The notes under the pieces were generated by a model, which saw nothing but the letters and a program-made list of their open reading frames with translations, did no database searches and was not told the origin of the DNA. Position numbers and translations under genes: made by a program. Positions 3 to 2,363 of a stretch of 2,363 nucleotides of DNA are shown here, in pieces. Position 1 is the stretch's first letter. Each line of letters opens with the position of its first letter. The DNA comes from a phage, in the sequence record PZ049727.1; one strand, written 5' to 3'.

Positions 3-251
3 TGGGCGGACTACCAGCTGTTCGGCAAGACCTTCTTCGACACCCTGGACTACCTCACCACCAATTGGTTGATGCCGCTGGGCGGGCTGGGCACGGTGCT
101 GTTCACCGGCTGGGTGCTGCAGCGTCACGTGGTCAGCGAGGCCATCGGCATTCGCAACGCCGGGCTGTTCCAGGCCTGGTGGAAGCTGCTGCGCTACGGC
201 ACGCCGGTGGCTATCGTGCTGGTATTCCTCAACCTGCTCGGGCTGATCTAG
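3..251 (+). CDS. C-terminal fragment of an integral membrane protein, probably a secondary transporter (sodium-dependent/NSS-like family is a best guess); 5' end lies outside the window
   Basis: Frame 3 is open from the window edge to TAG at 249-251. Translation ...WADYQLFGKTFFDTLDYLTTNWLMPLGGLGTVLFTGWVLQRHVVSEAIGIRNAGLFQAWWKLLRYGTPVAIVLVFLNLLGLI* is hydrophobic and TM-like with strong G/C third-position bias. The listed ORF 69..251 is the Met-initiated tail of this frame. The overlapping frame-2 ORF 2..439 is Arg/Ala/Gly-rich and reads through the terminators, so it is taken as spurious. Family assignment is from memory of sequence character only. Confidence 0.6.
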   Translation, partial: WADYQLFGKTFFDTLDYLTTNWLMPLGGLGTVLFTGWVLQRHVVSEAIGIRNAGLFQAWWKLLRYGTPVAIVLVFLNLLGLI

Positions 252-282
252 CGCGACCTGCGGTCGTCCGTGCAGAACGCGC

Positions 283-300
283 CGGTGGGCTGAAGCCCAC
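283..300 (+). repeat. GC-rich hairpin without T-tract (GGTGGGC-tgaa-GCCCAC), a near copy of the terminator hairpin at 383-400
   Basis: Stem 284-289 (GTGGGC) is the reverse complement of 294-299 (GCCCAC), with loop tgaa 290-293. It is followed by ggtacaagg, not a T run. It shares the GGTGGGCT / AGCCCAC core with 383-400. Confidence 0.4.
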
Positions 301-316
301 GGTACAAGGACGCTGC

Positions 317-338
317 GGGCTTCTCAGGAAGCCCTTTT
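317..338 (+). terminator. Rho-independent terminator-like hairpin plus T4, probable terminator of the upstream transporter gene
   Basis: Perfect 7-bp stem GGGCTTC (317-323) / GAAGCCC (328-334), loop tcag (324-327), then TTTT (335-338). It lies 66 nt downstream of the stop codon at 249-251, on the same strand. Confidence 0.55.
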
Positions 339-382
339 GGTGGGCTCAGGTCCATCCATCGAGGCCGACGCCGGCCTTGGTG

Positions 383-406
383 GGTGGGCTTCAGCCCACC
401 TTTTTT
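383..406 (+). terminator. Rho-independent terminator-like hairpin plus T6; probable DNA target structure of the group IIC intron inserted 3 nt downstream
   Basis: Perfect 7-bp stem GGTGGGC (383-389) / GCCCACC (394-400), loop ttca (390-393), then TTTTTT (401-406). The intron 5' end GTGCG starts at 410. Class C group II introns are known to home downstream of intrinsic terminator stem-loops. Confidence 0.7.
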
Positions 407-409
407 ATG

Positions 410-740
410 GTGCGCCAGGCATGGCGCGTAGCGCCGTGACTGGCGCTGTCGGGTTCACTGTGGTGGTGAGCCTGGCGACTTGGAGGTGAAAGTCCTCTAC
501 ACACCCGGCAAGGGGAAGTGTTAGCTGAAGGCAAGGGTGTCGCGGGCGACTGCGAATCTGAAGGAAGCCCGAGGCAAAATGCTGGCCTGACGAACAGGAA
601 GCGGATGAGGCGGCGCAGCGGGGTGAGGTGGCCATAATCGCCAAAGCCCGATACTTGCACGGAACGCTGCGACGTAGATCCGACAGGCATAAGCAGGAAG
701 GTCGCGCGAATTACCCTGGGAGATCTGTACGCTTGCCATT
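410..740 (+). ncRNA. Group II intron ribozyme 5' portion (domains I-III), non-coding
   Basis: About 330 nt between the 5' splice site and the RT ORF. It contains GC-rich helical segments and the motif GGCAAGGGTGTCGCGGGCGACTGCGAATCTGAAGGAAGCCCGAGGCAAAA (about 529-578). From memory, this closely resembles conserved domain I sequence of known class C introns such as the Oceanobacillus iheyensis intron. The domain limits were not folded and the 3' limit here is arbitrary (ORF start). Confidence 0.6.
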
Positions 741-2332: not shown

Positions 2333-2363
2333 CGCGACGCCATTGCGCCAGACGACATGTGCG

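Follow-up and report, generated by a model that had tools for sequence, protein, structure and literature searches.

An apparently mobile group IIC intron beside a terminator-like stem-loop: boundaries, class and target choice across its family

The introns closest to the element described here are those of group IIC, for which Toor et al. (2006, PMC1702495) give several hallmarks: a domain V whose distal stem is 2 bp shorter than in the IIA and IIB classes, a CGC that replaces the AGC triad, and an 11-nt bulge containing AGGAA. In the same account their IBS1-EBS1 pairing extends over 3-4 bp, there is no EBS2, and the stem-loop of a terminator takes up the position of IBS2 (PMC1702495). Recognition of the stem-loop together with short IBS1 and IBS3 sequences, and reverse splicing at the recognized site, are ascribed to the IIC ribonucleoprotein (PMC1702495; PMC3898094). 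The locus also touches on the GTAG-tagged class of REP repeats (Di Nocera et al. 2013, PMC3733652), a role in termination having been suggested for REPs (PMC3733652), and on the observation that 2 of the 9 group II intron copies of Pseudomonas putida KT2440 are associated with REPs (Tobes and Pareja 2006, PMC1525189).

The window analysed here is the whole 2,363-nt stretch of sequence record PZ049727.1; all coordinates are those of the window unless another sequence is named, and its features lie on the plus strand except where stated. From sequence comparisons we put at roughly 0.93 the probability that positions 410-2332 are an intact, recently inserted mobile group IIC intron of a kind common in Pseudomonas and Stutzerimonas. 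The element would then resemble B.h.I1 of Bacillus halodurans and other terminator-targeting IIC introns in its short domain V, CGC triad and AGGAA bulge (PMC1702495), in an IBS1-EBS1 pairing of 3-4 bp, in a reverse transcriptase (RT) that has no endonuclease domain, in the multiple near-identical copies behind unrelated terminators, and in an insertion point only a few bases beyond an inverted repeat and Ts, as the work of Robart et al. (2007) is relayed in PMC3898094. It departs from B.h.I1 in its Pseudomonas/Stutzerimonas host, in its other EBS1 sequences, and in the target found in the window, which is a REP copy with a possible 62-nt hairpin.

Boundaries, ribozyme and reverse transcriptase

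The window opens with the 3' end of a gene for a sodium-dependent (NSS/SNF family) transporter (3-251, stop codon 249-251). Scans of this 82-aa upstream fragment against Pfam and NCBIfam returned no match, and its identity is taken from the names of its homologues; the neighbouring gene fragments in L004, one of the more distant relatives, carry PF00209 (SNF). The next gene downstream of the empty sites is hppD, at a distance of approximately 250-270 nt. The intron occupies the intergenic region between the transporter gene, with which it is co-oriented, and hppD, and disrupts neither of the two. On the hppD side, ACATGTGCGGCAGCTTGTCGCAC (window 2354-2363, continuing into 4491-4515 of the relative L002 and into L003) shows full conservation between L002 and L003 amid variable surroundings; it could be a regulatory site for hppD, and an inverted repeat, GTGCG-N9-CGCAC, lies within it.

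The intron (1923 nt, GTGCG...CCCGAT) is delimited at 410-2332 by empty sites, by Rfam and by ends that are common to more than 60 copies. The first-pass annotation had proposed that intron-less versions of the flanks be sought in related genomes, and these exist: positions 4064-4469 of L002 (GCA_002432145.1) correspond to window 3-409 and positions 4470-4500 to window 2333-2363 with no gap, the joined flanks being 96.8% identical to L002, and a second intron-less copy, on the metagenome contig L118, joins 409 directly to 2333 as well. Because both copies make this join, the intron is exactly 410-2332, and because the bases differ at the two junctions this boundary cannot be shifted. The more distant relatives L003 and L004 are also empty and retain the hairpin and the T-run. 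The empty-site genomes are only ~97% identical to the window in the flanks, which limits how closely the insertion can be dated. L005, the only other occupied copy of the locus, comes from a noisy long-read assembly, in which the hairpin has suffered deletions, and was excluded from the junction analysis. At two further insertion sites with identical flanks (L013 and L021) the 3' exon begins with CCCGAT, the same 6 bases with which the intron ends (intron end CCCGAT, exon start CCCGATCC).

The ribozyme parts were located with Rfam, which places RF02001 at 540-709 (139 bits), RF01998 at 745-829 (55 bits) and RF00029, comprising domains V and VI, at 2261-2332 (48 bits). Domain V (2263-2292) has 30 nt, a GAAC loop and an AC bulge in both the RF00029 alignment and the RNA fold. 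Its distal stem is 3 bp long (ACG/CGU), with 4 positions deleted relative to RF00029 and the RNA fold in agreement, and its CGC triad (2264-2266) is aligned with AGC in gaGAGCCG, the Rfam consensus. The 11-nt unpaired bulge ATCTGAAGGAA, which includes AGGAA, is found at 556-566 at the unpaired model positions 17-27 of the RF02001 alignment, and is invariant in 17 related introns. In domain VI (2295-2330, from the RNA fold and RF00029) A2326 is bulged, at 7 nt from the 3' splice site. On the exon side a stem-loop is present at the IBS2 position in 52-58 of 58 insertion sites of the family, and positions -5 to -12 belong to the T-run everywhere.

The intron encodes an RT/maturase of 473 aa with an intact YADD (840-2261; Pfam and TIGR04416), whose start agrees with that of the annotated ltrA gene in L001. 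It scores 408 bits against TIGR04416, the model for group II RT/maturases, and in Pfam it matches RVT_1 and GIIM only, the endonuclease domain being absent. Its best match in the PDB, and closest solved relative, is the GsI-IIC RT of Geobacillus stearothermophilus (6ar1; 460 bits, E 5.5e-137), at only moderate identity: residues 55-464 align to residues 3-412 of the 428-residue chain, and the window RT has ~54 extra N-terminal residues relative to it. As the match spans nearly the whole GsI-IIC chain, it leaves no room for an endonuclease domain. Other structures score 350 bits (7uim) and ~270 bits (5hhj and 5hhl), all three of which we take to be class C proteins, versus only ~134 bits for the IIB RT 6me0 and the IIA RT LtrA. 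Judged by similarity scores rather than by a tree, the RT would be of the class C lineage and devoid of an endonuclease domain. Thus the assignment of the element to group IIC (bacterial class C), which the first-pass annotation had made, is supported on both the RNA features and the RT similarity.

Copies of the intron are numerous. A megablast search against plasmids recovered 300 records in which similarity begins at 400, 401 or 410 and stops at 2332-2334. One of them, on the P. aeruginosa plasmid p30Pae2-KPC (NZ_ON248939.1, ltrA product WP_020309285.1), shares with the window 99.8% identity over 401-2333 as well as the geometry of hairpin, T-run, 3 nt and GTGCG, but its site is behind a gene of the Rmf/CrpP family, with AACCGGC-TGAT-GCCGGTT, T7 and GTG as the target, the stem of which is unrelated in sequence to that of the window. 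Compared with the consensus of 25 copies of the same length the window copy shows 6 differences in 1923 positions, all in the ORF region. S. chloritidismutans AW-1 contains at least 10 consensus-identical copies at distinct sites (L011-L021, L026, L027), P. nitroreducens TX1 several copies, and P. putida 31753 ~18 copies of a sister lineage (L052-L071), two of which (L068 and L069) are only 4 kb apart; altogether, copies are found on plasmids as well as in several genomes, downstream of dozens of different terminators. Close relatives of the intron, at 85-96% RT identity, also occur outside Pseudomonas, in an Acetobacteraceae MAG (L029), a Pantoea sp. (L040) and Paraburkholderia terricola (L051), and could reflect horizontal transfer or assembly contamination. 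In addition, 189 plasmid records from Escherichia and other enterobacteria match part of the window at 80-90% identity and presumably represent related group II introns.

Ten or more identical copies in a single genome, each at its own site, imply that the family is actively mobile and that its RT has not been domesticated. The opposite reading, a fixed RT gene, domesticated or decaying and no longer capable of movement, appears very improbable to us. The sole point in its favour is that mobility is read here from sequence, and it is at odds with the occupied/empty polymorphism among 97%-identical relatives, with a ribozyme whose domains and bulged branch A are all intact, as is the YADD of the RT, with the 99.7% identity to copies in other species and plasmids, and with the identical copies at many sites inside single genomes. 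We rejected it on the polymorphism, the intact parts and the multi-site copies. The preference of the first-pass annotation for a mobile intron over a domesticated RT therefore holds, given the intact ribozyme domains and ORF, the low divergence from the copy consensus and the spread of the copies behind many terminators.

Target choice across the intron family

The 5' junction reads GGTGGGC (383-389), TTCA (390-393) and GCCCACC (394-400), which form a 7-bp stem with a loop, and then TTTTTT (401-406), ATG (407-409) and the first bases of the intron, GTGCG (410-414); the first-pass annotation had all of these coordinates correct to the base. Six of the 7 pairs of the stem (383-400) are G-C, and the hairpin is also listed by a terminator scan. 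As single-stranded DNA it has a folding energy of -8.0 kcal/mol, matched by 0-1 of 200 shuffles. The same scan finds 3 terminator-like motifs in the window versus 1.4 +/- 1.1 expected, a number that is not beyond chance; with a single-window count so near to chance, significance must come from comparison with other sequences.

For this comparison a scan of species-representative genomes yielded 80 loci with RTs 83-100% identical to that of the window, and all junctions were extracted. A site was scored as terminator-like if it had a perfect Watson-Crick GC-rich hairpin followed by a T-run of at least 4 nt, at most 14 nt from the insertion point. This test was passed by 52 of the 58 distinct insertion sites versus 46 of 38,976 control positions (0.12%) in the same loci, the remaining 6 sites having an imperfect stem or a T-run shorter than 4. 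T-runs of 4-8 nt, the counterparts of the T6 of the window, occur at 54 of the 58 sites. The distance from the last G-C pair to the insertion point is 7-13 nt with a mode of 9-10 (9 in the window), and that from the end of the T-run is 2-4 nt (3 in the window), so that the 5' splice site 3 nt after T6, to which the first-pass annotation had drawn attention, exemplifies a geometry seen across the family.

These counts bear on the idea that the hairpin adjoins the intron by chance, or that hairpin and T-run are carried in the mobile unit. Chance finds some comfort in the window taken alone, with its insignificant enrichment in terminator-like motifs, but not in the family, where 90% of the 58 sites are terminator-like versus 0.12% of the controls. 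Carriage along with the intron is contradicted by the stems, the sequences of which differ at all sites, and by the empty sites: as these keep the hairpin, T6 and ATG, all three belong to the target and not to the cargo of the mobile unit. We accord this alternative practically no chance, and consider it refuted by the empty sites together with the 58-site comparison. A terminator-type stem-loop with a short IBS1, which had been claimed as the signature context of insertion, is thus borne out by the 52 of 58 sites and by the 4-bp pairing described below. The accompanying term "homing site" can be retained in the sense of a stem-loop target, but not in the sense of a single homing site, the position being one of many interchangeable stem-loops.

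Open frames ending within 300 nt upstream are seen at 52 of 56 sites, with a clustering at 43-61 nt, versus 40 of 56 in the control on the opposite side, a high value explained by the commonness of open frames in GC-rich DNA and by the many terminators that lie between convergent genes. Location of the sites behind the ends of co-oriented genes is, on this comparison, only weakly supported. The insertion point in the window is 158 nt after the stop codon versus a median of ~50 nt elsewhere, where the control is likewise weak.

To define the short pairing, the 5' parts of 17 related introns with different flanks were aligned (alignment A1). IBS1 (TATG) is formed by the last 4 nt of the 5' exon (406-409) and is complementary to EBS1 (CAUA) in a hairpin loop of domain I (633-636; columns 236-239 of alignment A1). 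The pairing spans 4 bp and shows compensatory changes in 16 of the 17 introns, the only poorly pairing one being L032 (CATA versus CTTG). The EBS1/IBS1 pairs in the alignment are CATA/TATG, ACAA/TTGT, AAGC/GCTT, CAAC/GTTG, AAAC/GTTT, CAAT/ATTG, CCAA/TTGG, GCAA/TTGC, CAAA/TTTG and AATG/CGTT. Ten EBS1 tetranucleotides among introns whose RTs are 83-100% identical imply that the targeting loop evolves much faster than the rest of the ribozyme. In the lineage of the window exon position -3 is A or G, either of which can pair with U635. The first base of the 3' exon, C2333, is the presumed IBS3; it is C at 20 and T at 2 of 22 sites of the lineage, a pattern consistent with EBS3 being a G. The position of EBS3 was not found from the alignment, since this exon base shows hardly any variation between lineages.

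Stem-loops are also the targets of the IIC-attC introns (PMC3001079), and an intron of that lineage in an integron attC site would share this trait with the element of the window. Around the locus there are neither cassettes nor an integrase, the neighbours being the transporter gene and hppD, and the stem-loop, which lies downstream of a co-oriented gene, consists of a short perfect palindrome with a T-run behind it. We give an attC-site insertion next to no credence, and it was rejected on the transporter/hppD flanks and the lack of a cassette array.

The hairpin as a REP copy and as a putative terminator

The hairpin at which the mobile intron is inserted has the form of an intrinsic terminator, a GC-rich stem-loop passing directly into T6 downstream of a co-oriented gene. 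"Terminator" describes here the form of 383-406, the function being putative. Comparison with metagenomes and orthologs points to a further identity, in that the palindrome of 383-400 forms part of a REP copy of the sequence GGTG-GGTGGGCTTCAGCCCACC (379-400). The same palindrome occurs inverted at 285-300, within a decayed GTAG-type REP on the minus strand (284-305) that has 2 mismatches to GTAGGGTGGGCTTCAGCCCACC. The copy at 379-400 has GGTG instead of GTAG (2 mismatches), and neither copy in the window retains the GTAG tag. The orthologous positions in L003 and L004 contain the perfect 22-nt GTAGGGTGGGCTTCAGCCCACC in inverted pairs (977-998 and 1124-1145 in L003). A metagenome scan for the 18-nt palindrome GGTGGGCTTCAGCCCACC recovered at least 159 instances on at least 120 contigs; among the matches listed (159 instances) 94-96% have GTAG in front, and inverted pairs of GTAGGGTGGGCTTCAGCCCACC, 25-45 nt apart, are frequent. 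One contig (L090), from the same metagenome as L118, carries 5 REP copies in 12 kb. The exact palindrome was not found elsewhere in the 8-kb loci around the transporter gene. These comparisons identify the hairpin as a probable, decayed member of a widespread REP repeat of the GTAG type.

This copy agrees with the GTAG-tagged REPs and REPINs (PMC3733652) in a palindrome derived from the consensus GTAG-GGTGGGCTTCAGCCCACC, often in inverted pairs. It is unlike the usual member of the class in that its tag has decayed to GGTG and in that a T-run follows, which among the matches listed is the case in only 3 of 159 instances, one of them being L118 at this same locus. As a separate observation, in P. 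putida 31753 TGTAGGAGCGGGC lies within 10 nt 3' of an intron copy (L070); it presumably resembles the start of the P. putida REP, in which case this would be another intron beside a REP.

The surroundings of the REP copy allow other folds. Positions 339-400 are predicted to form a long REPIN-like hairpin of 62 nt with 28 pairs, many of them G-T/G-U, at -23.7 (DNA) and -55.4 (RNA) versus -8.0 and -15.1 kcal/mol for the short hairpin, and no shuffle folds as stably. The predicted 62-nt and 7-bp folds are mutually exclusive, and both end at 400; the pairing of 339-400 is preserved in L003 using different bases. A second terminator-like hairpin, GGGCTTC-TCAG-GAAGCCC with TTTT, is located at 317-338 (terminator scan and folds) and has similar counterparts in L003 and L004. 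The hairpin at 383-400 lies 132 nt after the stop codon of the transporter gene, with this second hairpin and its T4 in between.

These features raise the alternative that the target is a REP or REPIN which merely mimics a terminator by virtue of its T-run, the real terminator of the transporter gene being the hairpin at 317-338. We judge this to have a little under an even chance. The abundance of the palindrome and, among the matches listed, its GTAG tags and frequent inverted pairing speak for it, as do the perfect inverted REP pairs at the orthologous sites, the predicted REPIN-like hairpin, the terminator-like hairpin upstream and the precedent of KT2440 (PMC1525189). Against it, a T-run is retained in the distant empty sites (T8 in L003) in spite of its rarity behind the REPs listed, which points to selective maintenance of a terminator-like role here. 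The two labels are compatible, since REPs have themselves been proposed to act in termination (PMC3733652), and the alternative changes only the name of the target: the insertion of the intron would proceed alike. Hence the "terminator hairpin" of the first-pass annotation stands as to form, with its GC-rich stem and T6, and is refined as to identity, to a REP copy followed by a T-run.

A proposed route of insertion and its meaning for the family

For the mobile IIC intron favoured here, the target would be the GC-rich stem-loop that ends at 400 together with the following T6, the intron entering 9 nt past the stem. By analogy with other members of the IIC class, the intron RNA would, once excised and bound to the RT, recognize the stem-loop in DNA in place of a presumably missing IBS2-EBS2 pairing, while EBS1 and EBS3 would pair with the few bases at the junction as the intron reverse-splices into the DNA strand. 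Group II introns that lack an endonuclease can prime their cDNA synthesis from the replication fork. As the RT has no endonuclease domain, the primer for the cDNA is probably the nascent DNA strand at a fork. Placed behind a terminator-like structure, the intron would interrupt no gene and be nearly harmless to the host, and it would itself be transcribed only by read-through.

A REP-type target is one case among the 58 sites. One may speculate that REPs and REPINs which gain a T-run become landing pads for IIC introns and, relatedly, that stem-loop recognition tolerates a REPIN hairpin of 28 pairs, but we hold this to be rather doubtful. If true, the places available to a second mobile element would be shaped by how one repeat family spreads and decays. 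With only 3 of the 159 REP copies listed preceding a T-run, such a link between REPs and the intron would be at most occasional.

Neither the intron nor the way it inserts is new, and in its REP-derived target the locus adds only a little to the association recorded for P. putida KT2440. Beyond annotation, that is the boundaries at 410-2332, the class and the target rules, the locus itself has little consequence. The 58 sites of the family, with ten EBS1/IBS1 pairs and a fixed spacing of 9-10 nt from the stem, provide a clear natural example of target choice by IIC introns, and these data could guide experiments on the poorly understood recognition of the stem-loop.
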